Shown: piece after piece, positions 26,421 through 64,000 of the stretch
How the letters are laid out: the number at the start of each line of letters is the position of its first letter
How positions within the stretch are numbered: position 1 is the first letter of the stretch
Source of the DNA: an uncultured Chloroflexia bacterium
GTDB taxonomy: Bacteria > Chloroflexota > Limnocylindria > Limnocylindrales > CSP1-4
NCBI GenBank assembly: GCA_963812745.1
Contig: CAWEWE010000004.1
Location: 188,760-252,759 of the forward strand
Direction of reading: 5' to 3'
Length of the DNA stretch: 64,000 nt
The notes under the pieces: generated by a model
What the model was told of the DNA's origin: nothing
Databases searched by the model: none
The model's input: only the letters and a program-made list of their open reading frames with translations
Translations under genes and position numbers: made by a program

Positions 26421-27110
26421 CTAGGCGGGCATCGGCTGCGGGGCAGCCACCCTCTTCGGTGCCTTCTCCTCGGCTGCTCGCGTCGCCCACACCAGCCCGA
26501 GTCCGGCGATGAGGACCGTGAACCCGATCCCTGCGAAGAGCCCGGCGAGGCCGAGGCCCATCTGCAGGGTCGACGCCGTCACGGTGCCGACACCAAGGTT
26601 GGCGATCAGGGCGTGTGCCGTGCCCGTCCAGGCCTTGTCGCGCGCCGGCCCCTCGATGGGATGCTGGCGGTCGAAGTCGGTCCAGTAGCGGCCGTCGACG
26701 GCGAACTCGTACTCACCGGCGGGGAAGATCTCGCCGTTGTACTCCGTCTGCTCGTCAAGGACGATCGTCTGGGTTCCGTGCAAGGTGTGATAGGCGACCG
26801 TCGCCATCTGGTACATGTACTCGGTCGGGGTGTTGACCAGCGGATCGTTCGGGTTCAAGTCACCCTCCACGACCGGATACCCCCACTCCTCGCGCAGCAG
26901 CGCCAGGATCGACTGCGCGCCCTCGGGCTCGCCGCGATCGACGAGCACGCCCTGCTCGTTGTAGCTGAGCTGGATGTCCTGCGCGGCGCTGAACGCCTGC
27001 AGCGACCGGACACCCTCCTGGGTCCGGATGAACGCGTAGGCGCCGCCGGCCATGAAGACCAGGCCGAGGACCGCCAGGATGAGGCCGAGGCCTCGCAATC
27101 GTCCGATCAT
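26421..27110 (-). CDS. Hypothetical bitopic membrane protein with N- and C-terminal TM helices flanking an extracytoplasmic domain of roughly 170 aa
   Basis: Likely start MIGRLRGLGLILAVLGLVFMAGGAYAF at 27110, with GGAAAGGGA SD. C-terminal TM GLGLAGLFAGIGFTVLIAGLGLVWA. The upstream part of the track ORF lies in low-GC non-coding sequence. Confidence 0.5.
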   Translation of the reverse strand: MIGRLRGLGLILAVLGLVFMAGGAYAFIRTQEGVRSLQAFSAAQDIQLSYNEQGVLVDRGEPEGAQSILALLREEWGYPVVEGDLNPNDPLVNTPTEYMYQMATVAYHTLHGTQTIVLDEQTEYNGEIFPAGEYEFAVDGRYWTDFDRQHPIEGPARDKAWTGTAHALIANLGVGTVTASTLQMGLGLAGLFAGIGFTVLIAGLGLVWATRAAEEKAPKRVAAPQPMPA

Positions 27111-27273
27111 CGAAGTATCCCTTTCCACTTTGTTCCTTGTCGTTGACCTGACATGACTTTGGCGGTCCTGATGGCCTCCGCCTGTTGCCGAACGGACCCA
27201 TTCGCAAGCCCGATGGCCCGGGTCCCTGGGGTCCATTCGTCACATGACCCACGGGACCTAGCCCGACTCCGCA

Positions 27274-27735
27274 TCAGTCGACCGGGACGATCTCAACGCG
27301 GCAGGGGGCCCCGCCCGCCACCTTCGAGGAGACGCTCCCGAGGAGGCGAGCCATCCAGCGGTGCTGGCGAGCGCCGACGACCACGACGTCAGGCCGCTCC
27401 GTCCACGCCGCCTCGAGGATCGCGTCCGCTGGCTTCCCGTGCCACACGAAGGAGGTCGCCAGGACGCCCGCCGCGCGGGCACGGCGACGAATAAGGTCGA
27501 CCCCAGGCTCCAGGCGCTTGCGGTCGCCGTGATTGCGTGCCACGGCCAGGATCTGCAAGACCGCGTTCTCGCGGGCGGCGAGTGTGATCGCCTGCTCCGT
27601 CGCACGGCCTGAGGATTCGCTCAGGTCGGTCGCCAGCAGCACGTGGTAGACGGGCCGCGTCCCGCGTCCGGTTTCGGCGCCTTGACCCTGCGATGTGTCG
27701 CGCATATCGATCGCTGTCATCGTCGTATCCCTCAA
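27274..27735 (-). CDS. Universal stress protein (UspA family)
   Basis: VLLATDLSESSGRATEQAITLAA...DVVVVGARQHRWMARLLGSVSSKVAGGAPCRVEIV. Confidence 0.75.
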   Translation of the reverse strand: MRDTTMTAIDMRDTSQGQGAETGRGTRPVYHVLLATDLSESSGRATEQAITLAARENAVLQILAVARNHGDRKRLEPGVDLIRRRARAAGVLATSFVWHGKPADAILEAAWTERPDVVVVGARQHRWMARLLGSVSSKVAGGAPCRVEIVPVD

Positions 27736-27824
27736 TGCGGATTGGCGTGAGCCTGCGCACGACGAGGCCGCTCGGAAAGTGCCGGTCGGCTCTTTCGGAT
27801 GGGCTCTGACGGCCTGCGCCAGCT

Positions 27825-27841
27825 GGGACCAAGGCGTCCCC
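27825..27841. promoter_or_regulatory. GGGACC-AAGGC-GTCCCC inverted repeat in the divergent usp/flavodoxin promoter region
   Basis: Seen in sequence. GGGAC/GTCCC half-sites resemble NarL/DosR-family boxes, but the spacing differs from the mycobacterial DosR consensus. Confidence 0.25.
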
Positions 27842-27980
27842 CTCGACCGCTGCCCGGAAGGCCCATGTCTGGGGGCCGAATGGCCGTGGCGCCATGGCGT
27901 GAACCTCCCTACAACGGCAGAGACCCATGCTGGGCAACGGGATATACGCCCTGCTTCGGGCTGAGGGCTGAGGAGGCGTC

Positions 27981-28436
27981 ATGAGGATCCTGATCGTCTA
28001 CGCATCGCAATACGGGAACACCCAGAAGATCGCCCAGGCCATGAGCAAGGCGTTGGCAGCGGAGCACGACGTGCGCGTCTTGCATGCACCGGCCGCGCGC
28101 ACCATCACGGCCAAGGGCGTCGATCTGCTCTTCGTGGGCGCACCGACCCAGATGCGCGGCCTACGGCTCCTTGCGAAGCCCTTTCTCGCCGGCCTCGAGG
28201 GCCGCGGGTTCGGGGGCGTTCCCGCCGTGGCATTCGATACGCGGATGGCCGACTTCGTCCAGACCATCGCGTCGGATGTCATCGCGCGCCACCTCGTCGG
28301 GGCCGGCTGCCGTCTGGTCGCGCCGCCGGCGAGTTTCCTCGTCCTGGGCCTGGACGGCCCGCTTGCCGCCGGCGAGGAGGCGCGCGCTGCGAGTTGGGCT
28401 CGCTCCGTGGTGGGGGGTCTGTCGGTCCGCGCCTGA
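27981..28436 (+). CDS. Flavodoxin-domain protein
   Basis: MRILIVYASQYGNTQKIAQAM (FMN-binding T/S-x-T-G-x-T-like loop) ... LLFVGAPTQ. AGGAGG SD upstream. Confidence 0.65.
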   Translation: MRILIVYASQYGNTQKIAQAMSKALAAEHDVRVLHAPAARTITAKGVDLLFVGAPTQMRGLRLLAKPFLAGLEGRGFGGVPAVAFDTRMADFVQTIASDVIARHLVGAGCRLVAPPASFLVLGLDGPLAAGEEARAASWARSVVGGLSVRA

Positions 28437-28439
28437 ATG

Positions 28440-29570
28440 TCAGCCGCCAGCGAGACCGATCGTGGCGGTCGCGATCACGAGGTCCTCCCTGGCCCGCACC
28501 TTGAGGACGGAGACGCCGGTCGAAGCTCGCGTCAGTACGACGTCTCCATCCGGATCCAGATCCGGGATCTGCGGCACGCCCAGCAGCCCGAGACGAGCGC
28601 AGATGCGAGATCGGATGCTCCCGGCGTGCTCCCCGATCCCGCCTGTGAACACAAGGGCGTCGAGCCGCGGCAAGGAAGTCGCCATCGCGGCGATGCCCGC
28701 CGCTGCCCGACGAACGAACAGGTCGAGCGCGAGGATCGCACGCTGATCGCCGCTGGTCTCCATCTCGCGGAGTCGGCGCATGTCGGATGAACCGGCAACG
28801 CCCAGCAGACCGGACTCGCGGTCCAACTGGCGCTCGAGATCGTCGGCCGACATCCCATCGCGGATGAGTCGCGTCACGATGCCCGGATCGATCGAGCCGG
28901 CTCGTGTCGTCATCATCAGGCCCTCGAGCGGTGTGAGCCCCATCGACGTGTCGATGGAACGTCCACCGTCGACCGCGGTGACCGATGAGCCGCCACCGAG
29001 GTGGACGACCAGCATCGGCAGATCTTCCCGCTTACGGCCGAGCAGGCTCGCCGATCTGCCGACCGACCACTCGACTGAGAGTCCGTGAAACCCGTAGCGC
29101 CTGATGCCGTGATCCCGGACCCAGGCTTCAGGGACGGGATAGCGTCGTGCCACTTCCGGGAGGGTGGCGTGGAATGCGGTGTCGAAGACCGCGACGTGGG
29201 GCGTCTCCGGCAGTCGCTGTCGAGCCGCCCGGATCGTCGCGATCGCGATCGGGTTGTGAAGCGGGGCAAGATCCGCGAGGTCGTCGAGGGCTGCGACGAC
29301 GTCGTCGTCCAGCGTCGTCGGCGCTACGAACAGTGCCCCTCCGTGGACGACTCGATGGCCGACTGCCACGATCGACGATCGGTCGATGCCGGAGCGCGCT
29401 GCTGCGTCAAGGGCGCCCTCGACCAGGTCGGACACGACCGAGTTCGATCCCGGTTCCCAACCGACCGAGTGATCGAACCGTGGCTCTGTGTCGGGCAGGT
29501 CCAGAACGGTCATCTTGAGCGTGGCTGATCCTGCGTTCAGGACGAGCACCCGGCCCGCCGGCGACGTCAT
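28440..29570 (-). CDS. ackA: Acetate kinase
   Basis: N-terminal VLVLNAGSATLK (acetate/propionate kinase signature) and ...HLGGGSSVTAV. The start MTSPAG at 29570 was chosen over the longer track ORF. Confidence 0.85.
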   Translation of the reverse strand: MTSPAGRVLVLNAGSATLKMTVLDLPDTEPRFDHSVGWEPGSNSVVSDLVEGALDAAARSGIDRSSIVAVGHRVVHGGALFVAPTTLDDDVVAALDDLADLAPLHNPIAIATIRAARQRLPETPHVAVFDTAFHATLPEVARRYPVPEAWVRDHGIRRYGFHGLSVEWSVGRSASLLGRKREDLPMLVVHLGGGSSVTAVDGGRSIDTSMGLTPLEGLMMTTRAGSIDPGIVTRLIRDGMSADDLERQLDRESGLLGVAGSSDMRRLREMETSGDQRAILALDLFVRRAAAGIAAMATSLPRLDALVFTGGIGEHAGSIRSRICARLGLLGVPQIPDLDPDGDVVLTRASTGVSVLKVRAREDLVIATATIGLAGG

Positions 29571-29580
29571 CGAGCAACGG

Positions 29581-31959
29581 TCAGGATGGCCAGGTCCAGT
29601 CACGGATCTCCGGCGGATCCTCGCCGTGCTCCCGCGCAAACGCGCGAGCCCGGAGCCGTTCGTCCACAAGGTCCTGGCGGATCCCGGCGGCGGAGGATCC
29701 CAGATCAGCCACGCGGTCGATCACGTCGATTGCCAGATGGAAGCGATCGAGATCGTTGCGCATGACCATGTCGAACGGCGTCGTGACCGTCCCCTCCTCC
29801 TTGTAGCCACGCACGTGCAGGTTGTCGTGGTTGGCTCGGCGGTACGTCAGTCGATGGATCAGCCATGGGTAGCCGTGGTACGCGAATACGATCGGCCGGT
29901 CCGTCGTGAACACGGCGTCGAACTCGCTATCGGGCAGTCCGTGTGGATGCTCCTTCGGGTCCTGGAGCCGCATGAGGTCCACGACGTTGACGAACCGCAC
30001 GCGCAGCTGCGGCAGCCGCACGCGCAGGATCGACACTGCGGCGAGCGCCTCGAGGGTCGGCACGTCACCACAGGAGGCGATGACGACGTCGGGGTCACCC
30101 GCGTCGTTGCTGGCCCAGTCCCAGATCCCGAGTCCGCGCGTGGCGTGCAGGACGGCATCGTCCATCGACAGGTACGTGAGCGCAGGCTGCTTGCCGGCCA
30201 CGATCACGTTCACGTAGTCGCGGCTGCGCAGGCAGTGGTCGGCGACGGACAGCAGCGTGTTCGTATCGGGCGGCAGGTACACGCGGATCACCTCCGCCTT
30301 CTTGTTGATGACGTGATCGATGAAGCCAGGGTCCTGGTGGCTGAAGCCATTGTGGTCCTGCCGCCAGACATGGCTGGTGAGGAGGTAGTTGAGTGACGCG
30401 ATGGGGCGGCGCCACGGGATCTCCCTGGTCATCTTCAGCCACTTTGCGTGCTGGTTGAACATCGAGTCGACCACGTGGATGAAGGCCTCATAGCAGCTGA
30501 ATAGCCCGTGGCGACCTGTGAGGAGGTACCCCTCCAACCAGCCCTGGCACAGGTGCTCCGACAGGACCTCCATCACCCGACCATCGGGTGCCAGGTGGTC
30601 GTCCGTCGATCGCACCTCGGCGACCCACGTGCGGTCGGTCGCGTCGAACACGGCATCAAGCCGGTTGGAGGATGTCTCGTCTGGGCCGAACAGCCGGAAT
30701 GACGACGGGTTGGCCGCGATCACGTCGCGCAGGAAGGCCCCAAGCACGCGCGTCGCCTCACTCGACGTCGTGGCCGGCGAACTGACCTCGACCCCGTACG
30801 CGCGAAAATCCGGGAGCCGAAGGTCCTTGAGGAGCACGCCGCCATTGGCGTGAGGATTGGCGCTCATCCGGCGCTGGTCCAGCGGGGCCAGCTCGGCAAC
30901 CTCAGACACGAGCGCGCCCGACTCGTCGAACAGCTCTTCCGGTCGATATGACCGCAGCCATGTTTCGAGTTGGCCCAGATAGCTCGGATTCGTCCGTACG
31001 TCCGACAACGGGACCTGGTGCGATCGCCACGTACCCTCGGTCGGCTTTCCATCGACCTCCTTGGGTCCCGTCCAACCCTTCGGCGTGCGCAGGATGATCA
31101 TCGGCCAGCGAGGGCGCTCGACATCTCCCGCGCGGGCGGCGGCCTTGATCCGTCCGATCTCATCGAGGACCTCGTCGAACACTTCAGCCATCGCCCGGTG
31201 GACGAAGGCCGGATCGTCGCCCGCCACGATGTACGGCGCGTACCCGTAGCCCTCGAACAGGCTGATCAGCTCTGGCTCCGGGATGCGATCGAGGACGGCG
31301 GGGTTGGCGATCTTGTACCCGTTGAGCGCGAGGATGGGGATGACCGAACCGTCGGTCGCGGGGTTCAAGAACTTGTTGGAGTGCCAGCTGGCGGCCAGGG
31401 GACCCGTCTCCGCCTCGCCATCGCCCACGACGCAGAACACGACGAGGTCAGGGTTGTCGAATGCTGCGCCGAACGCGTGGACGAGCGCGTAACCGAGCTC
31501 GCCACCCTCGTGGATGGATCCGGGTGTCTCCGGGGTCACGTGGCTGCCGACGCCGCCCGGAAAGGAGAACTGGCGGAAGAGCCGGGTCATCCCGGCTTCG
31601 TCGGACGTCAGATCCGGATAGACCTCGCCGGATGTGCCCTCCAGATAGGCGTTGGCGACCGCCGCCGGCCCGCCGTGCCCGGGACCGACGATCCAGATCG
31701 CGTCGAGGTCGCGGGCCTTGATGACCCGGTTGGCGTGGGCGTAGACGAGGTTGAGGCCGGGCGTCGTGCCCCAGTGACCGAGCAGCCGCGGCTTGGTGTG
31801 CTCCGGGCGGAGCGGCTCGCGCAGGAGCGGATTGGCCATCAGGTAGATCTGGCCGACGGACAGGAAGTTGGCCGCGCGCCAATACGCGTCGATCAGGCGG
31901 AGCTCGTCGTCGCTCAGCGGAGACGAGCCGGCCTCAGCCGGCGATGCGGTCTGGGTCAT
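29581..31959 (-). CDS. xfp: Xylulose-5-phosphate/fructose-6-phosphate phosphoketolase
   Basis: N-terminal [19 protein letters not shown]-binding [10 protein letters not shown]...GPGHGGPA, and [24 protein letters not shown]. About 792 aa from the start at 31959. Confidence 0.9.
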
Positions 31960-32030
31960 CGATACCTCGTCGGTCGCCTCTGGGGTCACCAGGTCCAGCC
32001 TACCCCGACGGCTCGACCGACGGGTTCTGG

Positions 32031-32969
32031 TCAGGCCGTCGCCACGACGGCGGTCTCCTCTCGATGCGCGACCCCTGCCCGCGGCCGGGCGATCAGCACC
32101 GACGCCGCCGCAAGGTGCAGGACAGAGCGCGACACGCTGCCGACGAGCCACCGATGCAAGCTGCCCATATCCCTTGCCCCCAGGACGATGACATCGGCCC
32201 GCCACGTTTCGGCCTCATCGAGGATCCTCTCGACGACTTCCCCGTCCGCGACCACCGAGGCTCCCTCCACGTGACGCTGCCGTAGGCGCTCCGCGGTCAC
32301 CTCTGCCGCCGTCTGGGCTCGATGCTTGGCGATCTCGACCGCGTCGGCGTAGACCTCGATCGACGTCGTGCCGTCGACAGGCGAGATGCCCGTCCACCAG
32401 GGCATGCCTGGATCGGCAACGCTGACGACCCGGATCCGGGCCTCGTCGAAGAGACCGCTCCCGGCGATGAAGTCGGCCGCGGCGGCGGCGCCAGGCGAGC
32501 CGTCGGTCGCGAGCATGACCCGCTCGACGCGGGCGTGACGGGCGACGAGGACGGGGCATGAGGCGTGGTCGACAACCTCGGACGAGACTGAACCGAGCAG
32601 GAGCCGGCGCACGGTGCTCAGGCCGCGCGCACCCATCACGATGAGGTCAGCGCCGAAGTGGGCGGCCTCGGCGACGATCTCGGTCGCCGGTCTACCCTGG
32701 AGGACGCGAACCCCGGTGTGGGTCTCGCCTTTCCGCACGCGATCCGCGATGTCAAGAAGGCGGCGTGCGACGTCGTCACGTATGCGCTCTCGGTCGGTGG
32801 GCGGATCGACACGGATCACGTTGGGCCACGTGCTCCCCTCGGGCGCGAACGAATCCGGGATGACACTCACGACCTCGATCGTGGATTCGGCCGGCATGGA
32901 TAAGGCGGCCGTCGCCGCAACAGCGGACATCGACGCATCGGAGCCGTCGACCGCGAGCAGGATCTTCAT
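32031..32969 (-). CDS. Tandem-domain universal stress protein
   Basis: Two Usp repeats, each ending in the ...GARG(L/M)...LLGSVS..V...A..PVL(V/I)AR-like motif. Start [13 protein letters not shown] at 32969. Confidence 0.75.
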
Positions 32970-33093
32970 TCGTATGCCTCCTTCGATCGTCACGGTGCGG
33001 CACGAGCGGGCGACCTGGGATGTGCCACTTGCACCGCTTCCGCGTGACGCTCGGCCCGACCACGGACTCGGCTCCTCGTGGGAGCATGGGGCC

Positions 33094-35640: not shown

Positions 35641-35690
35641 CCCTGGCCAGGAGTCCTGGGATCGGGTGACGTTCGGCCCTCGCGCGCCCG

Positions 35691-53223: not shown

Positions 53224-53243
53224 GCGCTCGGAGGAGGATCGAC

Positions 53244-53735: not shown

Positions 53736-53793
53736 ACCTCGACATCGCCGACTGTCGGTTCGCCCCGGCCGACGGGGCCGAGATCGTCACCGA

Positions 53794-54942: not shown

Positions 54943-55107
54943 GCATAGAGTCTGCGCGACCGCCTGTCGCTGGGTCAGTGCCGGAGGTCACACCCGAGTA
55001 CCTCACGCGGCGGTTGCGAGGATGACGCCGGTCGGCGCTGGGGTCCCCTCTCGGCCTGATCCCGATGACATTCGGCCCTATCGACGCGGGCGCCCGGACC
55101 CCACGCT

Positions 55108-55536: not shown

Positions 55537-55539
55537 ACG

Positions 55540-56429
55540 ATGCAGATCCGCGATGTGTCGCTGCACGTCGAGGTCGTCGGACACGGCGACCCGCTGCTGC
55601 TGATGCACGGCGGGCCCGGGCTCGACCACGTGTCGCTGACACCGTTTCGAGAACTCGCGGGCCGCCACACCGTCATCCTGTACGACCACCGCTGCAACGG
55701 GCGGTCGACCGGTGCACCGGTGACGACGATGACCTGGGAAAACCTCACCGCGGATGCTGACGCGCTCCGCGAAGTGCTCGGGTCGAGCGGTGGGCAGTCC
55801 TTGGGCATTCGTTCGGCGGCCACGTCGCCCTTGAGTACGCGCTGCGCTTTCCAGGACGCGTGTCACGACTCGTCCTGCTGGACACGGCGGGCGACGCACG
55901 ATGGTCGCAAGAGAACGCGGCCGACGTCCTCGCCGACCGCGGGTTCAGCTCGAAGACGGTTGCCGTCGCTCGCCGGTTCTATAGCGGCCGGGTCCAGCCG
56001 AAGGATTTCGTCCGGGCGTCGATCCGGCTCCTGCCCGCCTACGACCATCGGTTCAGCCTCGTTCGGCTCGCGCGCGAGATGATCAAGGGCGGGTGGCGGA
56101 TGAAGACGCGGCCTGAGGCGCTCACCTTCGGCGGGCAGATGATGCGCGGCTGGAGCGTCATGGACCGACTTGGTGAGATCGGCGTGCCGACCCTGGTCAT
56201 CGCAGGGCACGACGACTTCCTCTTCCCGCCCGAGAGCCAGGCCCTCCTCGCCGCCGGCATCGCGAACGCTCGGCTGCGCATCATCGAGCGTGCCGGCCAT
56301 AACCCGCAGTCCGAGCGGCCGGCCGAGACACTGGCGGCCGTCGCGGACTTCCTCGCCACGGCGCCTGCGCTCCCGGCTATGCCAGTCTCGAACGCGGTCG
56401 TCACGTCGCCGGCGCCCGGGAGTGCCTGA
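55540..56429 (+). pseudogene. Alpha/beta-hydrolase (proline iminopeptidase-like) gene interrupted by a frameshift
   Basis: Frame 1 encodes HGGPGLDHVS...ADADALREVLG. The nucleophile elbow LGHSFGGHVALEYAL continues in another frame. The switch maps to a GGG run at 55780-55782, consistent with a 1-nt deletion in GGGG. Confidence 0.65.
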
Positions 56430-56554
56430 CGGCTGAAGAGCCGGATCGTCGGCCGGGCGACGGATCGTAACGGGCGTCATCGGCCTCCGCTACTACCTCG
56501 ACGCCGCGCTGCCGTCGACGATCGACTTCGTCGCCCGGTACGCCAACGGCGGAA

Positions 56555-56583
56555 GGTCCGGCGGACGCGACCTCCGCCGGACC
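56555..56583. terminator. Bidirectional terminator-like hairpin between convergent hydrolase and nirK genes
   Basis: GGTCCGGCGGA-CGCGACC-TCCGCCGGACC, a perfect 11-bp stem. Confidence 0.55.
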
Positions 56584-56598
56584 GACGCGCGAGACCCC

Positions 56599-57999: not shown

Positions 58000-58026
58000 T
58001 CCTTCAGAAGGTAGCCGAATCGCTGG

Positions 58027-59322
58027 TCAGCCGAGGAGAGGAACGGCACAGGCGAAAGCGGTCGACCCCGCCGCCCGGGCCGCCTGCGCGACCGCCGAGC
58101 CGTCGGTCGAGCGCTTGGCGCTCGGCTCCTGGACCACGAGGGCGGTCACCATCCCGAACATGCCGTCGGGACCCTCGGCGTGCTGCAGGATGTGGCAGTG
58201 GAATGCCCATGCGCCGGGCTCCTCGCAGCGGATGACCACGTCCCAGCGCTCTCCCGGGTTGACACCGAGGGTGTCGCATGTGAATGCCGCCGGCCCGAGG
58301 GGGTACCCGTCACGCGCCACGACCCGCATCGGCATCCCGTGGAGATGCCACGGATGCATCATGTTGCCCTCGTTCATGAAGCGGATCACGATCGTCTCCC
58401 CGAGCGTCGCGACGATCGGAGACGTCGCCGGGAAGCCGCGACCGTTGATCGTGAAGCCGCCCAAGGCATCATTCGAGATCCACACGATGTCTTGCGTCGC
58501 GCCGTACAGCTTGTCGTAGCGCTGCTCGGTGTCCCGCGGCTCCACGATGAACGCCCCAAGCAGCCCACGGCCGACCTGGTCCGTGGCGTTGTGGTGGCTG
58601 TGGTACATGTGCGACCCGGGCGTCCGCGCCGTGAACTCGTAGGTGAACGACTCCCCGGGCTTGATCGGGTCCTGGGTGACGTGCGGGACGCCATCCATGT
58701 TGTTCGGCAGCCGCTGCCCATGGAAGTGGACACCGGTCGTCTCCTGCATGTTGTTGGTGAACGTCGCACGAATGCGGTCACCCTCGACGACGGTCAGACG
58801 GGGTCCAGGCCAGGTCCGGTCGAAGCCGAGCCCTGGGACGGAGTCCTTCATCGCGTCGATCCGGTGGTCGACCTCGTCGATCGTCAGCTCGAAGACCTTG
58901 ACCCCGTCGACCACACGCGGTTCCAGCGGAACATTGCCATGGTTGGGCATCGACGCCCCCTCACCCTCGAGAAAACGCTTGACGACCGCCAGTGCGTTGG
59001 CGTCGTGATCCACGGCCGAGGGGCTCGCAGAAGCTGATGGTGCCGGGCTGTGGCTCATCGTCGGAGCGGCAGGCGCCGATGGGGACCCGGTCGGGGCCGA
59101 TGGACTGGCCGCCGATCCATACATCGAGCCGGGTGGGTACCGGTAGCCCGGAGCTCCGACGACCGGGGCACAGGCGGCGACGCCGGCGGCGACGAGGCCG
59201 CCTCCTGCGGCACGGAGCAGCGCGCGCCGGCTGAGCGCGTCACGGGCGGGCGACGGCGGTTCCCGGTAAGTCGGCGGACCTGCGCCGTCCGCAGGGCGAG
59301 TCAACGTATCCATGACGCCCAT
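58027..59322 (-). CDS. Multicopper oxidase (small laccase-like), Tat-secreted
   Basis: Tat motif SRRALLRAAGGG. Copper motifs HFHG, HSHH, HPWHLHG and HCHILQHAEGPDGMFGM. Confidence 0.8.
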   Translation of the reverse strand: MGVMDTLTRPADGAGPPTYREPPSPARDALSRRALLRAAGGGLVAAGVAACAPVVGAPGYRYPPGSMYGSAASPSAPTGSPSAPAAPTMSHSPAPSASASPSAVDHDANALAVVKRFLEGEGASMPNHGNVPLEPRVVDGVKVFELTIDEVDHRIDAMKDSVPGLGFDRTWPGPRLTVVEGDRIRATFTNNMQETTGVHFHGQRLPNNMDGVPHVTQDPIKPGESFTYEFTARTPGSHMYHSHHNATDQVGRGLLGAFIVEPRDTEQRYDKLYGATQDIVWISNDALGGFTINGRGFPATSPIVATLGETIVIRFMNEGNMMHPWHLHGMPMRVVARDGYPLGPAAFTCDTLGVNPGERWDVVIRCEEPGAWAFHCHILQHAEGPDGMFGMVTALVVQEPSAKRSTDGSAVAQAARAAGSTAFACAVPLLG

Positions 59323-59395
59323 CTTCCCGGGGACGTGCGCGGCGAAGAAGGGACCTCCGGCCCGTCGCGCCGGGCCGATCGGCCCGGTCCGGGCG

Positions 59396-59803
59396 TCAGG
59401 TTCCGAGTGCGTAGGGCGACCAGCGGGACATGAACACGATGGCGAGGAAGCCGACGTCGATCAGCAGCCCAAGCACCAACCAGGGATGGAAGAAGAGCAG
59501 CAGGAGGGCGATCGACGAGCCGGCTCCGGCAGCCACTGCGGCGGGCCACAGGGCCGCCGGTGCGAGGCCGAGGACACAGGCCGCGGCGAGCGTGAACGCG
59601 GCAAGGGTCGCTACCACCAACACCGTTCCGACCGTGCGGGTCAGATCCGATCCGGAACCGATCAGGGAGAGGATCCCCGAACGGCCGAGCGTAAAGGGCC
59701 AGGCGGGCCCGTCAGCAGTCGCTTGGGGACGGGGCGCAAGATAGCTGACATGGATCGCGCCGTGCGCGAACACGAATGCAGCGAGGAGCACTTTCAGCAG
59801 CAC
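59396..59803 (-). CDS. Hypothetical membrane protein (4 predicted TM helices)
   Basis: A hydrophobic 135-aa ORF with genome-typical codon bias. Confidence 0.45.
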   Translation of the reverse strand: MLLKVLLAAFVFAHGAIHVSYLAPRPQATADGPAWPFTLGRSGILSLIGSGSDLTRTVGTVLVVATLAAFTLAAACVLGLAPAALWPAAVAAGAGSSIALLLLFFHPWLVLGLLIDVGFLAIVFMSRWSPYALGT

Positions 59804-59878
59804 GGCAGGACGCCTCCGAAGTGGGTCACGATCCGAGCCTACTCACGGGCCGCGCCGGGGACCCAGAGCCGGATGGCC

Positions 59879-61189
59879 TCAGGTCGCGCTCCGAACGGCC
59901 CCCGCCAGCGCCGCGCTCGGTCGGTCGCTCCGCACCGCCGCGCGGAGCTCGTCACGGAAGTCGGGGTGGGCGATGGCGATCAGGGCCTTCGCGCGCTCGT
60001 CGAGGCTCTTGCCGAACAGCTCAGCGACTCCGTACTCGGTCACGACCGTACGGACGTGCGCCCGGGTCGTGACGACGCCGGCGCCCGGCTGCAGCGTCGC
60101 GGCGATCCGTGACACGGTCCCGCCCGCGGCGGTCGACGGCAGCGCGATGATCGCTCGTCCCTCCGGCGCGAGTGCCGCGCCACGGATGAAGTCCATCTGC
60201 CCGCCGACGCCCGAATACATCCGTCGGCCGACGGAATCGGCCACGACCTGGCCGGTGAGGTCGACCTCGATGGCGGAGTTGATGGCGACCATCCGCCGAA
60301 AGCCCCGGATCACAGCCGAGTCGTTGGTGAAGTCGACGGGTCGCATCTCGACCATCGGGTTGTCGTGCATGAAGTCGTACAGCCGCTTCGTGCCCAGCAC
60401 GAACGCGGTAACGATCTTGCCCCGGTTGCGCTCCTTGGCGTTCCCGGTGATGGCGCCCGCCTCGACCAGGTCGACGACCGAGTCGGTGAACATCTCGGTA
60501 TGGATGCCGAGGTCGCGCTTGTCACGCAGGAACAGAGCCGTCGCGGCCGGGATCGCCCCGATGCCGAGCTGGATCGTCGCCTCGTCGGGAATGAGATCGG
60601 CGACGTACGCGCCGATGCGGCGCTCGACCTCGCCGATCGGCCCGATCGGGTGCTCGTACGGCGACACATCGACATCGACCGCAAGGTCGATCTCATCGAC
60701 GTGGATGAAGCTGTCGCCAAGCGTCCGCGGCATGGCGCGGTTGAACTGGACGATGACGGTCTGCCCGGCGCGCATCGCCGCGTGGATCGCTTCAACGGAC
60801 GTGCCCAGCGAGCAGAAACCGTGGCGATCCGGGGGCGTGGCGTTGATCAGAACGGCATCAAGAGGAAGGGCACCGGACGTGAACAGATGTGGGACGTCCG
60901 ACAGGAACACCGGGACGTAGTCGGCGCGGTCTTCCTCGACGGCCCTTCGCGCGTTGGGGCCGATGAACAGCGCCCGGTGCCGGAAGTGGCGGGCCATTTC
61001 AGGCGCGAGGTGAGGCCCCGGCCCCTCGATGTGGAGATGAACGACGCTGATGTCCGTGAGGTCTTCGGCCGTGGCGCGGTCGACCAGGGCGTCGAGCAGG
61101 ACCGATGGGGCGGCCGCGGCGCAATGGACGTACACCTGCTGCCCACTATCGATGGCCGAGACAGCTTCAGCCGATGTGACGATCCGCAT
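59879..61189 (-). CDS. Acetyl-CoA hydrolase/transferase family protein (4-hydroxybutyrate / succinyl-CoA:acetate CoA-transferase-like)
   Basis: Characteristic ...GIGAIPAATALFL...HTEMFTDSVVDLVEAGAITG...YSGVGGQMDF. Confidence 0.75.
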   Translation of the reverse strand: MRIVTSAEAVSAIDSGQQVYVHCAAAAPSVLLDALVDRATAEDLTDISVVHLHIEGPGPHLAPEMARHFRHRALFIGPNARRAVEEDRADYVPVFLSDVPHLFTSGALPLDAVLINATPPDRHGFCSLGTSVEAIHAAMRAGQTVIVQFNRAMPRTLGDSFIHVDEIDLAVDVDVSPYEHPIGPIGEVERRIGAYVADLIPDEATIQLGIGAIPAATALFLRDKRDLGIHTEMFTDSVVDLVEAGAITGNAKERNRGKIVTAFVLGTKRLYDFMHDNPMVEMRPVDFTNDSAVIRGFRRMVAINSAIEVDLTGQVVADSVGRRMYSGVGGQMDFIRGAALAPEGRAIIALPSTAAGGTVSRIAATLQPGAGVVTTRAHVRTVVTEYGVAELFGKSLDERAKALIAIAHPDFRDELRAAVRSDRPSAALAGAVRSAT

Positions 61190-61255
61190 CGCGTGACTCT
61201 ACTCGGGGATGACGGGCCAGGGCGGGATACGCGACCCTGGCCCGTCCCCGGCTGC

Positions 61256-61762
61256 TCAGGAAACCCCGTCCTGGGCAGCCGTCGCGAGCGCAGCGCCCCA
61301 CTGCCGGGCTCGCTCGAGTTCGCCGTCCTTGAGTGGGCCGTACTTGCCGGTGACGAGGAACTTCTGACCTTTGGAAAGCAGTCGATAGCCGGCGCGCTCG
61401 AGTTCGTGGGTGATCGTCCCGATCGACCCGCCAGGTGAGAATTCGAATCTCGTCTCGAAGGCGGCGACGCGCGCCTTGCCCGCCGGAACGGCGTCAAGCC
61501 ACGACCGCATCGATCGGTGGCTCGTGTCCGCCGGCGTAGGGGCACCATACTCACGAAGCAGCCCCGCCCGAATGTCGTCGGTCGGGAGGCGGAACCCCAA
61601 GACCGGCGCGCCGACGATCACTAGATCCGCGCTCGACATGACGTCCGGGCTGGCTTCGTCGGTCGTGATCGCCGACGCGTCCGGACCGATCCCCTCGGCG
61701 ATGGCGCGGGCGACCGCTGCGGTGTTACCCCAAAAGGACTCATAGACGACGACTGCGTGCAT
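61256..61762 (-). CDS. Flavodoxin-domain protein
   Basis: MHAVVVYESFWGNTAAVARAIAEG...DLVIVGAPV. The start at 61762 is preferred over the longer track ORF. Confidence 0.6.
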   Translation of the reverse strand: MHAVVVYESFWGNTAAVARAIAEGIGPDASAITTDEASPDVMSSADLVIVGAPVLGFRLPTDDIRAGLLREYGAPTPADTSHRSMRSWLDAVPAGKARVAAFETRFEFSPGGSIGTITHELERAGYRLLSKGQKFLVTGKYGPLKDGELERARQWGAALATAAQDGVS

Positions 61763-61909
61763 GTTGTGGTACCTCCGTCGGCTCGATCGTGCGACACCGC
61801 GGGTCGACGCGGCAGGGCCAAACGGCCTGCACGATGCGGGCCACCCGCACATGAAACGACCCGCCGGCGCGATGCCGACGGGTCGTCTGCCGGTCAGCCT
61901 GACCGAAGG

Positions 61910-62227
61910 TCAAGCGGACATCGGCCGATGGGCGGTATACGTGCCACCCGTGGCATACCGAGTGACGAGCTCGACGATCCCGCCAAGGACCACGCCACCA
62001 ACGAGCGCGGGAACGAGCGCGAGCCCATCCCACACTGGGGCGAATGCCTGCAGGCCGACGATGAACTCGCTCGCGATGATCGCGCCGAAGGCGGCAGCGA
62101 TCCCGTCGACGATCCACTCGTAGCCGGTGTTGGCTTCACCGATGAACTGGGCGACGACGCCGAAGACGACTGCTCCGACGATCAGCAGGAGCCACCCGCC
62201 GAGACCGAGAGTGATGGCGAGCTCCAC
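61910..62227 (-). CDS. GlsB/YeaQ/YmgE family stress-response membrane protein (paralogue)
   Basis: Gly-rich small membrane protein whose C-terminus ...TYTAHRPMSA parallels ...SPFHRRPMSA of the 38594..38914 copy. Confidence 0.55.
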   Translation of the reverse strand: MELAITLGLGGWLLLIVGAVVFGVVAQFIGEANTGYEWIVDGIAAAFGAIIASEFIVGLQAFAPVWDGLALVPALVGGVVLGGIVELVTRYATGGTYTAHRPMSA

Positions 62228-62295
62228 CTGACTACCTCCTTTCTCGACGCCAGGTCGGCGCCTCGGTAGTCATCGTCGCTCGTCGTGGTCGACGC

Positions 62296-62317
62296 TCCCA
62301 GTGCCAGGCGACTGGGA
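62296..62317. promoter_or_regulatory. Inverted repeat TCCCAGT-N8-ACTGGGA upstream of the GlsB-like gene and downstream of the response-regulator gene
   Basis: Seen in sequence. Perfect 7-bp arms. The right arm contains GGGAC. Confidence 0.25.
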
Positions 62318-62402
62318 CACGGAAGGCATTCGGACCTATCGCTCGGTCCACCGAACGCTCCGCAGGGGCCGAATCGCCCGGAGGATTAGTCGATCGGACC
62401 TG

Positions 62403-63089
62403 TCAGGTCGGGTGTTCGGAGCGGTGCTTCGCGACGAAAGCAGCCGCTTGGGCGCGTCGTTCGAGGTTGAGCTTCGATAGGATCGAGCTGACGTAGTTCT
62501 TGACGGTCTTGTCCGAGAGGAAGACCTGGGCGGCGATCTCCTTGTTGGTCATTCCTTCGGCTACCAGCGCCAGGATCTTCTGCTCCTGGGAGGTCAGCTG
62601 CGAAAGCTCATCTTGATAGGTTCCGGACGCGATCCGGCGGACGCGCTCGAGGACTTTCTCAGTTACCGCCGGATCGAGGAGCGACTCGCCGCGCCCGACC
62701 GACTCGAGCGCGGCGACCAGGTCGCGCGCCCGGACCTGCTTCAGGAGGTAGCCGGAGGCTCCCGCGACGATCGCCGAGAGGACTGCGTCATCGTCCGGAT
62801 ACGACGTCAGCATCACGATGCGGGTCTCGGGGAACTCGGCCCGGATCTCGCGACACGCCTCGATGCCGGAGCCATCCGGGAGCCGGACGTCCATGACGAC
62901 GATGTCCGGCCGGAAGCGGCGGGCAGCCTCGATCGATTCAGCGACGGTGCCGGCCTCCGCTACGACCTGAAAACCAGGGCGACGGTCGAGGAGCGCGACG
63001 AGCCCCTGACGGACGACTTCGTGGTCGTCGACGACTAGCAGTCGAAGTTGCCTGGCCGGCGCTGTCTCGCCTGCAGTTGCGTCAGTCAC
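62403..63089 (-). CDS. NarL/LuxR-family response regulator (DosR/DevR-like)
   Basis: Receiver LRLLVVDDHEVVRQGL...DIVVMDVRLPDGSG. C-terminal LuxR HTH LTSQEQKILALVAEGMTNKEIAAQVFLSDKTVKNYVSSILSKL. Confidence 0.85.
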   Translation of the reverse strand: MTDATAGETAPARQLRLLVVDDHEVVRQGLVALLDRRPGFQVVAEAGTVAESIEAARRFRPDIVVMDVRLPDGSGIEACREIRAEFPETRIVMLTSYPDDDAVLSAIVAGASGYLLKQVRARDLVAALESVGRGESLLDPAVTEKVLERVRRIASGTYQDELSQLTSQEQKILALVAEGMTNKEIAAQVFLSDKTVKNYVSSILSKLNLERRAQAAAFVAKHRSEHPT

Positions 63090-64000
63090 CGAGTCGCCTC
63101 TTCCTTGTCGGTGGGCCGATCGGCCGTTGATGCGCCGATGGGCACGCGGACGATGATAGTCGTCCCGTTGCGGCCGCTCTCGACCTCGAGTGTCCCGCCC
63201 AGCCGGCCCGCGCGGTCGCGCATGTTGGCGAGCCCGAGATGGCCACCGGGAGTCGCTGCTCGGCTATCGAAGCCCTTCCCGTCGTCCACCAGCTCCAAGC
63301 GCACCTGGTCCGCATCACACCGGAGCAGGACGCGCGCATTGGTCGCGTTCGCGTGGCGCGCGGTATTGGACAGTGCCTCACGCGCGATCTGCAGCAACTC
63401 GCCCCTCGCGTGGGCCGGCATATCGATCCGCTCGGCGGGTACCTCGAGGTCTACATCAATCACGTGGTTCTGCCGGATCTGCTCGGCGAGCGCGGCCAGC
63501 AGGCCGCCGAAATCGGTCGTATCGACGAGTTCCGGCCGGAGACCCACCACGAACTGGCGGAGATCGGCGATGGCGCCGTTGAGGGTGTCGATGGCGCGGT
63601 CAACACGATGGAATGCCTCCGCGCTGTCCGTCTCCATCAGGTCTGGGACGTCCTCGAGGGATAGGGAGATCGCATAGAGCGTCTGGATGATCCCGTCGTG
63701 GAGGTCCTTGCCGATCCGCTCGCGCTCGTCGATCACGGCAAGGTGCTGGACCGCTTCGTGGAGGCGGGCGTTCTCGATCGCGATGGCGGCATGCAGAGCG
63801 AACAGCTCGACCAGGCGCTGATCGTCTTCTGTGAACCCCTCCTCCGAGGCCTTGTCGGTCAGGTACAGGTTCCCGATGGTCCGGTTCTTCAGGCGCACCG
63901 GGACACCGAGAAGAGACGACATCGGGGGATGGTTCACGGGAAAGCCATGACTGGCTGGATGTGCCGCGATTTCCGGGATCCGGAGCGAGCGACCCTCGGT
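63086..64000 (-). CDS. GAF-domain sensor histidine kinase (HisKA_3 / DosS-like), N-terminus beyond window end
   Basis: H-box ERERIGKDLHDGIIQTLYAISL. HATPase motifs ...EALSNTARHANAT... and DDGKGF...GHLGLANMRDRA. A GAF-like segment LLGVPVRLKNRTIGNLYLTDK lies at the window edge. It overlaps the regulator start by 4 nt. Confidence 0.8.
   Translation of the reverse strand, partial: TEGRSLRIPEIAAHPASHGFPVNHPPMSSLLGVPVRLKNRTIGNLYLTDKASEEGFTEDDQRLVELFALHAAIAIENARLHEAVQHLAVIDERERIGKDLHDGIIQTLYAISLSLEDVPDLMETDSAEAFHRVDRAIDTLNGAIADLRQFVVGLRPELVDTTDFGGLLAALAEQIRQNHVIDVDLEVPAERIDMPAHARGELLQIAREALSNTARHANATNARVLLRCDADQVRLELVDDGKGFDSRAATPGGHLGLANMRDRAGRLGGTLEVESGRNGTTIIVRVPIGASTADRPTDKEEATR

Follow-up and report, generated by a model that had tools for sequence, protein, structure and literature searches.

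We propose that a cluster of genes for stress proteins, fermentation, hydrogen production and copper enzymes in an uncultured soil Chloroflexota bacterium of the class Limnocylindria is probably the core regulon of a two-component system of the DosS/DosT-DosR (DevS-DevR, OsdK-OsdR) type. The cluster covers ~43 kb, namely positions 26421-64000 of the window (the whole 64,000-nt stretch analysed) plus ~5 kb past the window edge. Since nearly every cluster operon bears the box of the DosR/DosS-like switch, the dormancy circuit of mycobacteria and Streptomyces appears to exist also in another phylum, the Chloroflexota. The gene observations of the original prediction were confirmed and its interpretation is supported, while the signal, the choice between activation and repression, and the nitrosative part are inferred; the mycobacteria-like organism that it implied is a member of the Limnocylindria and not an actinobacterium.

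Results

The two-component system

62403-63089, minus strand, response regulator, DosR/DevR/OsdR-like, NarL-type with REC and GerE HTH, 228 aa (Pfam)
63086-64000, minus strand, sensor histidine kinase, DosS/DosT-like, GAF-HisKA_3, N-terminus cut by the window end (Pfam)

The GTG start of the regulator overlaps the kinase stop by 4 nt. The top PDB match of the regulator is DevR (3c3w, E 3e-62, 213 bits; runner-up VraR, 160 bits). It shares 104 of 206 residues (~50%) with M. tuberculosis DevR/DosR, including the phospho-acceptor Asp and the whole recognition helix, KTVKNYVS, and close relatives are labelled 'DevR' by JGI pipelines. The complete kinase, as encoded in a 99.6%-identical contig (L082, 7930-9141), has 403 aa, with one heme-type GAF domain followed by HisKA_3 and HATPase_c. 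Over its whole length the GAF domain best matches GAF-A of DosT (2vzw, E 4e-39) and of DevS (E 1e-35) in the PDB, and it keeps the proximal His (NHPPM) and the distal Tyr (GNLYLT) of heme-binding GAF-A; it may well bind heme. The predicted DosR/DosS likeness of the NarL-family regulator and the GAF-HisKA_3 kinase is thus supported by these matches. The pair had also been taken as the end of the island, which proved to be an artefact of the window edge, as the near-identical contig carries the cluster ~5 kb past it.

Genes and operons

Genes were called from codon-position GC and identified via Pfam and NCBIfam; the gene starts in the USP/phosphoketolase/acetate kinase and P-ATPase region and the gene table of 36542-38914 were taken from contig L001.

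26421-27236, minus, 271-aa protein of no known family, left end of the cluster
27274-27735, minus, USP (Pfam)
27981-28436, plus, flavodoxin (Pfam)
28440-29669, minus, acetate kinase (Pfam, NCBIfam)
29581-31989, minus, phosphoketolase (Pfam, NCBIfam)
32031-32969, minus, tandem USP with two USP domains (Pfam, NCBIfam)
33094-35640, plus, type IIA (Ca-type) P-ATPase (Pfam, NCBIfam)
35691-36239, GNAT, following the ATPase stop with a box between
36542-36916, minus, cupin (Pfam)
37267-37668, minus, USP (Pfam)
37866-38597 and 38594-38914, minus, two proteins of no known family (L001 table)
39078-44568, plus, hydrogenase operon, beginning with a small ORF (Pfam)
39375-39845, plus, stand-alone cNMP-binding protein, hydrogenase operon (Pfam)
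39842-41839, plus, fused hydrogenase beta-gamma subunit (Pfam, NCBIfam)
41839-42687, plus, hydrogenase small subunit (Pfam, NCBIfam)
42680-44002, plus, hydrogenase large subunit (Pfam, NCBIfam)
ending at 44568, plus, last ORF of the hydrogenase operon, no assigned family
44657-46648, plus, PFOR alpha/gamma (Pfam, NCBIfam)
46645-47073, plus, CBS-pair protein (Pfam)
47070-48758, plus, PFOR delta/beta (Pfam, NCBIfam)
48725-48988, plus, HypC, PFOR operon (Pfam/NCBIfam)
48985-49929, plus, EamA transporter, PFOR operon (Pfam)
49937-50725, plus, DUF6390, PFOR operon (Pfam)
50731-52539, plus, malic enzyme, PFOR operon (Pfam, NCBIfam)
52816-53735, two genes of no assigned family, boxes upstream
53794-54942, minus, ferritin-like/VIT iron transporter, rubrerythrin-like N-terminus (Pfam)
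55108-55536, plus, CBS-pair protein, divergent from VIT (Pfam)
55540-56429, plus, alpha/beta-hydrolase, after the CBS gene (Pfam)
56599-57999, minus, cupredoxin-fused NirK-like copper nitrite reductase (Pfam)
58027-59322, minus, two-domain multicopper oxidase (MCO), Tat signal (Pfam)
59879-61189, minus, acetyl-CoA hydrolase/CoA-transferase (Pfam)
61256-61762, minus, flavodoxin-like protein (Pfam, weak, E 4e-4)
61910-62227, minus, 105-aa membrane protein, in one operon (59879-62227) with the flavodoxin-like and CoA-transferase genes

The tandem USP, phosphoketolase and acetate kinase genes form one minus-strand operon divergent from the P-ATPase gene, the PFOR-type oxidoreductase is divided over two genes (44657-46648 and 47070-48758) in a long plus-strand operon that reaches to malic enzyme (44657-52539), and the MCO and NirK-like genes form one minus-strand operon (56599-59322), the translation of which shows the Cu-ligand motifs HSIDFH and YHC...H...M. 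The best NCBIfam matches of the [NiFe]-hydrogenase (39842-44002) are sulfhydrogenase (group 3b) subunits, all below cutoffs, and the L1 motif RICGIC and the L2 motif DPCISCATH can be read in the translation. The NirK-like protein aligns with positions 27-310 of 326 of TIGR02376 (E 1.5e-57) at 195 bits, short of the 296-bit cutoff; the CoA-transferase matches the NCBIfam butyryl-CoA:acetate CoA-transferase at 288 bits, below cutoff. The alpha/beta-hydrolase is frameshifted in this assembly and intact (296 aa) in L082.

Most of the predicted gene inventory was recovered, namely two flavodoxins (one of them the weak match), phosphoketolase with acetate kinase, [NiFe]-hydrogenase, PFOR, malic enzyme, the cupredoxin-fused NirK, the multicopper oxidase, the VIT transporter, two CBS proteins and the CoA-transferase. 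Four USPs hold as four Pfam USP domains, on three genes in the window, with a fourth USP gene lying just past its edge, and the two supposed GlsB-like stress proteins gave no Pfam match at E <= 0.1. The Ca-type P-ATPase, GNAT, cupin, cNMP-binding protein, HypC, EamA and DUF6390 genes are additional to that inventory. The truncated globin (13806-14243) and the PAS-GGDEF gene (14251-15369) described upstream are present; both are separated from the island by ~12 kb and lack a promoter-position box.

A common box upstream of the operons

The original prediction had proposed motif discovery on the island intergenic regions. An unbiased EM search of this DNA converges on GGGCCGAAYGNC, which is similar to the experimentally validated OsdR consensus box AGGGCCGATCGGCCCT (PMC5069765); the de novo box, G(G/T)G(A/C)C-N-TT-C-GGCCC, is a variant of the Streptomyces OsdR and M. 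tuberculosis DevR boxes. Even with 3 mismatches allowed, the canonical M. tuberculosis 20-mer has no match, nor is the strict pattern GGGNCN4GNCCC enriched; therefore, a variant box would be recognised.

The PWM built from window sites has 53 intergenic matches of at least 14 bits in 80 foreign loci (permuted PWMs, mean 2.0, maximum 6). Conversely, the PWM from foreign sites, not fully independent because its training sites were chosen with the window-derived one, has at 12 bits or more 10 matches in the 3,236 bp of island intergenic DNA, and none in the 2,643 bp of window intergenic DNA outside the island; the 58 kb of coding sequence contains 3 (permuted PWMs, mean 0.09, maximum 2). The island genes are clustered beyond chance; the common box of their operons is absent from the remaining intergenic DNA of the window. 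Predicted sites (bits from the foreign-trained PWM) are as follows.

27776-27795, 14.5 bits, 50 nt from the USP start, divergent USP/flavodoxin region
27870-27889, 17.3 bits, 101 nt from the flavodoxin start, same region
33041-33060, plus, 12.2 bits, divergent, 81 nt to the tandem USP operon and 44 nt to the P-type ATPase; absent from the training set
35663-35682, plus, CGGGTGACGTTCGGCCCTCG, 19.2 bits, between the ATPase stop and the GNAT gene
39008-39027, weak, the sole box upstream of the hydrogenase operon
44583-44602, 18.1 bits, 65 nt upstream of the PFOR operon
44614-44633, weak, 34 nt upstream of the PFOR operon
52700-52719, 14.8 bits, upstream of the unassigned genes 52816-53735
52722-52741, adjoining the previous box, good score only with the window-trained PWM
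55062-55081, plus, CCGATGACATTCGGCCCTAT, 21.8 bits, the strongest box, divergent region, 129 nt to VIT and 37 nt to the CBS gene
59347-59366, plus, 11.0 bits, tandem box 1 upstream of the MCO gene (pair at 34 and 56 nt)
59369-59388, plus, core GGGCCGATCGGCCC, 16.0 bits, tandem box 2 upstream of the MCO gene
61812-61831, minus, 15.1 bits, ~59 nt upstream of the flavodoxin-like gene; absent from the training set
62363-62382, minus, TCCGGGCGATTCGGCCCCTG, 16.9 bits, 145 nt upstream of the membrane protein/flavodoxin/CoA-transferase operon
62320-62339, weaker partner of 62363-62382

The GGGCCGATCGGCCC core at 59372-59385 is identical to the OsdR consensus. Contigs L002-L004 have a box at the position equivalent to 61812-61831, and both L003 and L004 retain the site orthologous to 62363-62382. 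The near-identical contig has a 19.4-bit box ~60 nt 5′ of the kinase gene. A box was found for 13 of the 15 island transcription units; no convincing box of their own was found for the minus-strand genes at 36542-38914 (cupin, USP and two unassigned). Although the proposed metabolism hinges on the hydrogenase operon, the box of that operon is weak in this genome. The DosR/OsdR-type box, validated on 80 independent loci, supports the predicted coordinated programme, in which the island operons would be co-regulated through it.

Several boxes lie within 19-44 nt of annotated start codons (GNAT 19 nt, MCO and CBS 34-37 nt), which is compatible with leaderless transcripts or with repression, and box orientation relative to the gene shows no preference (47 same, 49 opposite). 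Both features would suit a regulator acting mainly as a repressor or roadblock, with boxes over or just 3′ of promoters and expression when it is unphosphorylated. However, DevR and OsdR activate at such boxes (PMC5069765), and, on small counts, TANNNT elements cluster 29-32 nt 3′ of box centres and in kinase promoters a TAGGCT element precedes the start codon by 6-7 nt, spacings that would put the boxes near -42 and -61.5, respectively, both activator positions. We consider repression improbable and activation the better reading.

Conservation and origin

Orthologues of the regulator with 76-96% identity occur in 80 species-level Chloroflexota MAGs, and adjacent kinase, CoA-transferase, MCO and USP genes recur at these loci, the CoA-transferase gene adjoining the regulator in 50 of the 80. 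Boxes of at least 14 bits occur in only 32 of the 80 loci, many of which are short; per intergenic kb, their density is 0.6-0.8 within 2 kb of the regulator and 0.03 at 8-10 kb, and in nine foreign loci a box precedes the kinase gene by ~60 nt. The foreign targets include USP, flavodoxin, PFOR, NirK-like, CoA-transferase, ATPase, hydrogenase, malic enzyme and CBS genes, and further H+-PPase, Rrf2 and DoxX. Boxes precede the korA homologues of L039, L051, L057 and L073 and the ATPase homologues of L056 and L061, and a 20.6-bit box lies at the hyhBG homologue of L048.

DosR-type systems are best known from Actinobacteria, and this, together with a tRNA-Gly 1.7 kb left of the island and strain-level indel variation within it, would be in keeping with a horizontally acquired mobile island, for instance from Actinobacteria, whose content mirrors the donor rather than a host-native regulon. 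Against this, GC content (~70%) and skew are uniform along the whole window and the genes called in the window include no integrase or transposase by Pfam/NCBIfam. The 80 MAGs share both orthologues and neighbours; therefore, the system is inherited within the class and not recently mobile. Acquisition seems highly improbable. At the left boundary, a hairpin (26336-26420) separates the cluster from an unrelated aminotransferase gene, and the foreign-trained PWM finds no boxes in the window intergenic DNA left of 26421.

Discussion

Based on these protein identities, the box with its enrichment and its conservation elsewhere, and its position at the kinase operon, we propose the following circuit. 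First, the 403-aa kinase could sense O2, possibly also NO or CO, via heme in its single GAF-A-type domain. Upon ligand loss, it would autophosphorylate on the HisKA_3 histidine, and the NarL-type regulator would receive the phosphate on its conserved Asp. The phosphorylated regulator would then bind, as a dimer, imperfect palindromes of 14-16 bp, G(G/T)G(A/C)C-N-TT-C-GGCCC. These sites, often paired or in divergent promoters, precede the start codons by 35-145 nt in at least 13 transcription units, and the regulator would turn all of these units on together, including its own operon through a box ~62 nt 5′ of the kinase start.

The output could be a persistence and fermentation programme including USP and CBS-pair proteins, in which phosphoketolase and acetate kinase would make ATP from acetyl-phosphate, PFOR would oxidise pyruvate with flavodoxins as carriers, and reductant would leave as H2 through the NAD(P)-linked group 3b [NiFe]-hydrogenase. 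Malic enzyme, the CoA-transferase, Ca and Fe transport, and the periplasmic NirK-like nitrite reductase and two-domain MCO may also belong to it, the nitrosative-stress component being a tentative part.

DevS and DosT respond to NO and CO as well. The same circuit could serve another signal, with the GAF domain sensing NO, CO, redox or a non-heme ligand and the regulon being a general energy-starvation, stationary-phase or nitrosative-stress programme instead of one for hypoxia. The presence of the NirK-like enzyme, an NO producer, in the regulon, the Rrf2-type regulator and H+-pyrophosphatase in sister-genome regulons, and the linkage of Streptomyces OsdR to development, stress and oxygen (PMC5069765) fit with this; however, the O2-binding proximal His and distal Tyr are conserved, and PFOR and group 3b hydrogenase are oxygen-sensitive or fermentative enzymes, making sense mainly when O2 is limited. 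We regard this alternative as rather unlikely and O2 as the preferred signal.

Comparison with known systems

The hydrogenase resembles the group 3b Hyh enzymes in four-subunit content, with ShyA-D/HydA,B,D,G as best NCBIfam matches (all scores under the archaeal equivalog cutoffs), in the L1 and L2 NiFe-binding cysteine motifs and in having HypC close by, but differs by the fusion of beta and gamma into one 665-aa protein and the cNMP-binding protein translationally coupled upstream.

As in M. tuberculosis and M. smegmatis DevR, the regulator is NarL-type, with ~50% identity, the same recognition helix and the phospho-Asp kept, and the kinase shares heme-type GAF-A, HisKA_3 and HATPase with DevS/DosT. 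Like DevR boxes, the boxes are palindromes in which GGGNC/GNCCC arms flank a T-rich centre, and they often occur in tandem; as for DevRS, one lies upstream of the system's own operon. The M. tuberculosis DosR regulon includes the CBS-pair protein Rv2626c and the P-type ATPase CtpF. The cluster, which mirrors dormancy regulons as predicted, likewise holds many USPs, CBS-pair proteins, a P-type ATPase and a group 3b hydrogenase, the last as in M. smegmatis, where Hyh is under DosR control (10.1101/2023.09.11.557286). Several features set the system apart from DosRS. It belongs to another phylum, the Chloroflexota, and its 403-aa kinase carries a single GAF domain where DevS/DosT (~575 aa) carry two. 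The kinase gene comes before the regulator gene and the USP gene is divergent, in contrast to USP-devR-devS, and the boxes have GGCCC/GKGMC arms in place of GGGAC/GTCCC. The cluster adds PFOR, phosphoketolase and acetate kinase, flavodoxins, NirK and MCO, whereas hspX, nitroreductase and nitrate-reductase genes were not seen in it.

Compared with Streptomyces OsdR, the operon order is reversed relative to osdR-osdK, the box centre is usually R-TT-C instead of G-AT-C, with a left arm often GTGAC, a link to development genes is not known here, and the content is fermentative (PFOR, hydrogenase, phosphoketolase), whereas the OsdR cluster has nitrate reductase and pyruvate phosphate dikinase. Nevertheless, as with S. 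coelicolor OsdR/OsdK (SCO0204/SCO0203, within SCO0167-SCO0219), the host is a soil bacterium usually considered aerobic, USP genes are chief targets, the box is nearly the same (OsdR consensus AGGGCCGATCGGCCCT; GGGCCGATCGGCCC at 59372-59385 of the window), and the regulon is clustered around its two-component system (PMC5069765).

Gene content and limits of the island

The window has a uniform GC content of about 70% (range 0.66-0.72 throughout), so that raw ORF lists consist mostly of spurious frames; genes were called via codon-position GC and identified with Pfam and NCBIfam. Nearly all genes that the original prediction had named at 26421-64000 are present, including two flavodoxins, phosphoketolase and acetate kinase, a [NiFe]-hydrogenase, PFOR, malic enzyme, a CoA-transferase, a cupredoxin-fused NirK-like protein, a multicopper oxidase (MCO; Tat-signal, two-domain), a ferritin-like/VIT transporter and two CBS-pair proteins (Pfam/NCBIfam), as well as the NarL-type regulator and the GAF-HisKA_3 kinase (Pfam). 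The four universal stress proteins (USPs) counted there correspond to four USP domains, but these are spread over three USP genes within the window, and the stress proteins called GlsB-like lack Pfam support. Overlooked until now were a Ca-type P-ATPase and the GNAT, cupin, cNMP-binding, EamA and DUF6390 genes; HypC is encoded in the island as well.

Features of the window referred to in the text
13806-15369, truncated globin gene (plus strand) and PAS-GGDEF gene (minus strand)
24626-24701, tRNA-Gly(CCC)
26336-26420, intergenic hairpin region
33094-35640, Ca-type P-ATPase gene
39375-39845, cyclic-nucleotide-binding (cNMP) protein gene
46645-47073, CBS-pair gene between the two PFOR genes
55540-56429, alpha/beta-hydrolase gene
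62403-63089, minus strand, NarL-type regulator gene
63086 to window end, minus strand, GAF-HisKA_3 kinase gene

The PFOR-type 2-oxoacid:ferredoxin oxidoreductase is encoded by two genes, alpha/gamma and delta/beta, and the stop and start codons of these and the intervening CBS-pair gene overlap. Homologues of PFOR-alpha and the CBS protein occur together near the regulator in 13-14 of the 80 loci that surround relatives of the regulator in other Chloroflexota MAGs (hereafter foreign loci; species-level, retained from 518 regulator relatives, 1.29 Mb), and this CBS-pair protein may regulate PFOR as an adenylate-sensing subunit. Identification of the CBS-pair and tandem-USP proteins as the specific orthologues of Rv2626c and Rv2623, respectively, was rejected, the similarity being at family level only.

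At the left edge, the DNA that separates the first island gene from the convergent aminotransferase gene contains a perfect GC-rich hairpin (GGGCCCGACTC-TTCC-GAGTCGGGCCC), which is likely a bidirectional terminator marking the island boundary. The tRNA-Gly gene is situated 1.7 kb to the left, no integrase was seen nearby, and a called ORF overlapping the tRNA (24649-25164) is probably spurious. A recently acquired mobile island is unlikely as an explanation for the gene cluster, because the base composition is uniform, no integrase or transposase domains were found among the genes scanned, and the two-component system is conserved across the class; moreover, the tRNA-Gly is separated from the island by the unrelated aminotransferase gene.

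The right edge was extended with the ENA contig ERZ25039588 contig_5600, a 1.35-Mb metagenomic contig that is 99.6-99.7% identical to the window, with differing start calls. In its locus L082, a divergent USP gene, DoxX, a third flavodoxin, a CBS-BON protein and a hemerythrin follow beyond the kinase. Therefore, the island does not close at the two-component system as had been proposed; its apparent end there is due to the window edge.

Several local differences separate the two assemblies. The VIT-to-MCO segment (window 53737-59938, L082 12291-20318) is just 95.8% identical, and the CoA-transferase/MCO interval contains an indel of about 2.3 kb. At this site contig_5600 carries a CitMHS/ArsB-type transporter, and 547 bp of the window remain unaligned and encode a membrane ORF of 125 aa (59396-59773); this divergence and the indel suggest strain-level recombination within the island. 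The window splits the alpha/beta-hydrolase gene, which L082 (15304-17561) has as an intact 296-aa ORF; the NirK-like and MCO genes, in turn, are cut in L082, and in L001, another locus of contig_5600 (11978-16081), PorA/C and CBS are fused as one 805-aa ORF and PorD/B is truncated. Such frameshift differences are probably long-read assembly errors rather than pseudogenes.

The two-component system resembles DevR and DosT/DevS

The likeness to DosR/DosS put forward for the two-component system is borne out for both proteins at the sequence level. The regulator consists of REC and GerE domains of the NarL/LuxR type (Pfam), and its best match in the PDB is DevR (3c3w, E 3e-62, 213 bits); VraR and NarL score well below it, with 160 and 126 bits. 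The regulator shares about 50% identity with Mycobacterium tuberculosis DevR, retains the phospho-acceptor Asp (VMDVRLPDG versus VLDVRLPDG in DevR), and has exactly the DevR recognition helix, KTVKNYVS; the DNA-contacting residues of DevR are reported by Wisedchaisri et al. (2005) to be Lys179, Lys182 and Asn183. Its closest relatives (76-96% identity) are all from Chloroflexota MAGs, mostly labelled Candidatus Limnocylindrales/Limnocylindria, and the JGI pipeline names the close ones 'response regulator DevR'. An actinobacterial host, to which the GC content of about 70% would point, was rejected because of these relatives. In one foreign locus (L038, ~6900-7130), a unit of about 60 bp (…CACCGGGTTCCTGAGYGGCTCCGCCCCGGYACGAAAGCGRTCCCGCACCGACTCGCCACC…) is directly repeated, with at least two tandem copies immediately after the regulator stop codon.

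The kinase, complete in L082, is a 403-aa protein with a single GAF, a HisKA_3 and a HATPase_c domain (Pfam). Its residues 38-181, the entire GAF domain, align with the GAF-A domains of both DosT and DevS (E 4e-39 and 1e-35, respectively). The proximal-His motif is kept as NHPPM (DosT, HHPPM; DevS, YHPPM), and so is the distal Tyr, within GNLYLT. The kinase is thus predicted to carry a GAF-A domain of the heme-binding type. A tandem GAF-A and GAF-B architecture is absent from the complete protein, and the longer kinases of sister genomes, checked for a second GAF domain, likewise hold a single GAF stretch. The order also departs from the regulator→kinase arrangement of DevRS and OsdRK: here the kinase gene precedes the regulator gene with a 4-nt overlap, as it does, in the order of the two genes, in at least 61 of the 80 foreign loci.

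A predicted DosR/OsdR-type box precedes most island operons

The M. tuberculosis 20-mer consensus TTSGGGACTWWAGTCCCSAA has no match in the window at up to 3 mismatches, the strict core GGGNCN4GNCCC is not enriched (5 matches, 5.3 expected), and plain k-mer comparison of intergenic with coding DNA gave a weak signal. Motif discovery by EM on the intergenic DNA of the island, the check named with the original prediction, yielded the motif GGGCCGAAYGNC. This is a variant of the experimentally validated OsdR consensus of Streptomyces, AGGGCCGATCGGCCCT (PMC5069765), the core of which is present exactly at 59372-59385.

To avoid circularity, the motif was cross-tested in both directions. A position weight matrix (PWM) from 11 window sites only, scanned across the foreign loci, gave 53 intergenic matches at ≥14 bits, compared with a mean of 2.0 and a maximum of 6 for column-permuted PWMs, at a density 5-7 times that in coding DNA. 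Conversely, a PWM from these 53 foreign sites only (found with the window PWM; consensus C-G-K-G-M-C-R-T-T-C-G-G-C-C-C-Y) was scanned over the window at ≥12 bits. Intergenic DNA accounted for 10 matches within the island (3,236 bp) and for none elsewhere (2,643 bp), and coding DNA (58 kb) contained 3; permuted PWMs gave a mean of 0.09 and a maximum of 2, relative to which the island intergenic DNA is enriched about 100-fold. The boxes at 33041 and 61812 had not been used for training. Box density in the foreign loci, per intergenic kb, declines from 0.6-0.8 within 2 kb of the regulator to 0.03 at 8-10 kb; the motif is therefore linked to the two-component system rather than being a generic intergenic repeat.

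At least one predicted box was assigned to 13 of the 15 island transcription units, as delimited in this analysis, and co-regulation of the island, the central idea of the original prediction, thereby gains support from both cross-tests.

Island transcription units with a predicted box
USP / unknown protein
Flavodoxin
Tandem USP / phosphoketolase / acetate kinase
P-ATPase
GNAT
VIT transporter
CBS / hydrolase
MCO / NirK-like protein
PFOR-CBS-PFOR-HypC-EamA-DUF6390-malic enzyme operon
Two unknown genes
Membrane protein / flavodoxin / CoA-transferase
Kinase/regulator operon (box just past the window end, 19.4 bits in L082, ~60 nt before the kinase gene)
cNMP/hydrogenase operon (weaker)

Among the foreign loci, boxes stand upstream of genes homologous to those for the kinase (9 loci), USPs, flavodoxin, PFOR, NirK-like protein, CoA-transferase, GNAT, ATPase, hydrogenase, malic enzyme and CBS protein; further boxes lie ahead of genes for DoxX, an Rrf2 regulator, a GltD-like Fe-S flavoprotein and an H+-pyrophosphatase. 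Boxes of the DosR/OsdR type, a variant of the known box, are therefore predicted ahead of both the target operons and the system's own operon. Within the kinase gene 3′ end, a box-like sequence, GGGCCGATCGGCC (63110-63129, 10.4 bits, kept in L082), lies 21-40 nt ahead of the regulator start codon and may serve the regulator gene as an internal promoter or operator.

The truncated globin and PAS-GGDEF genes exist as described, about 12 kb before the island. They were rejected as regulon members: their sole box-like sequence (14254-14273, below 10 bits with the foreign-trained PWM) lies at the junction of convergent 3′ ends, where 7 bp separate the stop codons, and has no promoter position.

Boxes are often paired, 22-43 bp apart, or lie within divergent promoter regions. 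The kinase promoters (L082 7826-7929 and the kinase-upstream DNA of the foreign loci L002, L003, L004, L032, L073, L074 and L078) show, 6-7 nt ahead of the start codon, an extended -10 element resembling TGnTAGGCT, which implies a leaderless kinase mRNA and a box centred near -61.5. TANNNT elements cluster 29-32 nt downstream from box centres, a spacing that would put the boxes concerned near -42, where DevR acts from a class II position. This geometry, read from promoter sequences, is suggestive only. Repression rather than activation by the regulator is the less likely mode, since both the regulator family and the promoter geometry count against it.

Hydrogenase and NirK-like enzyme

The hydrogenase has a four-subunit content with beta and gamma fused, and its large subunit carries the Ni-binding Cys motifs L1 (RICGIC) and L2 (DPCISCATH) in translation. 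Every subunit has a sulfhydrogenase Shy/Hyd subunit as its top NCBIfam match, each below the equivalog cutoff. The large subunit with L1/L2, the small subunit and the diaphorase-like beta/gamma subunits together point to a group 3b [NiFe]-hydrogenase. The stand-alone cNMP-binding protein, which has no DNA-binding domain, is encoded by a gene that overlaps the start of the fused beta-gamma gene, and its homologues lie beside hydrogenase genes in 9 foreign loci. The NirK-like protein has an N-terminal cupredoxin domain (Pfam), matches TIGR02376 over positions 27-310 of 326 (E 1.5e-57) with 195 bits against a cutoff of 296, and shows in translation the motifs HSIDFH and YHCGTAPTLHHIANGM, which are putative type 1 and type 2 Cu ligands.

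Discussion

Based on these findings, we propose, as the best-supported reading, that a phosphorelay of the DosS-DosR type controls the clustered island regulon. The heme-GAF kinase would sense the loss of O2, and possibly also NO or CO. Once phosphorylated, the NarL-type regulator would activate the regulon, the output of which may comprise persistence, substrate-level ATP synthesis, release of reductant in the form of H2, and copper and nitrite chemistry in the periplasm. The fermentative group 3b hydrogenase Hyh of M. smegmatis is under DosR control (10.1101/2023.09.11.557286) and is, by analogy, a direct precedent for the proposed H2-producing regulon. That the system answers a signal other than the loss of O2, or serves another physiology, seems to us rather less likely.

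Limnocylindria are an abundant uncultured class of soil and freshwater, usually called aerobic heterotrophs, and the dormancy circuit controlled by DosR is a classic subject of tuberculosis research. To our knowledge, functional studies of this circuit are confined to Actinobacteria. In the literature on DosR/DevR in Chloroflexi, Limnocylindria and Ellin6529 we found no description of a DosR-type regulon; the label 'DevR' is already carried by annotation pipelines for Chloroflexota relatives of the regulator. The full physiological picture, namely that Limnocylindria survive anoxia by H2-evolving fermentation and nitrite reduction under the control of a heme kinase, with a minimal single-GAF DosS/DosR pair driving one supra-operonic module of about 43 kb, is a tentative one and somewhat doubtful. 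If true, the DosRS circuit would be an ancient Terrabacteria trait or a product of inter-phylum exchange and no actinobacterial invention, and the minimal kinase would offer a natural way to ask what the second GAF domain does in DevS/DosT. The work offers a DosR counterpart that is conserved and box-validated across hundreds of Chloroflexota genomes, a sensor of the DosS type for biochemistry that is naturally reduced to a single GAF domain, a defined PWM usable to map the regulon across MAGs and metatranscriptomes, and a concrete prediction for the response of an uncultured lineage to oxygen loss: fermentative H2, ATP from acetyl-phosphate and copper-dependent nitrite reduction.

Compared with known systems, the island system shares a similar mode of action with DevRS and OsdRK and shows most of the features by which membership of that type is judged. 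However, it comes from a different phylum, its sensor has a single GAF domain whereas that of mycobacterial DevRS/DosT has two, its gene order (kinase→regulator) is the reverse of devR-devS and osdR-osdK, and its box has GGCCC/GKGMC arms and a TT centre. Its regulon also differs in content, with PFOR, phosphoketolase, flavodoxins, NirK and MCO present, while hspX, nitroreductase and nitrate-reductase genes were not seen in the island cluster. It represents no new regulatory principle; it is a known circuit type with some variant features, of use for understanding how an uncultured lineage lives in its habitat, and the placement of this Chloroflexota DosR-type system within the DevRS/OsdRK type, as a member with variant features, is solidly supported.
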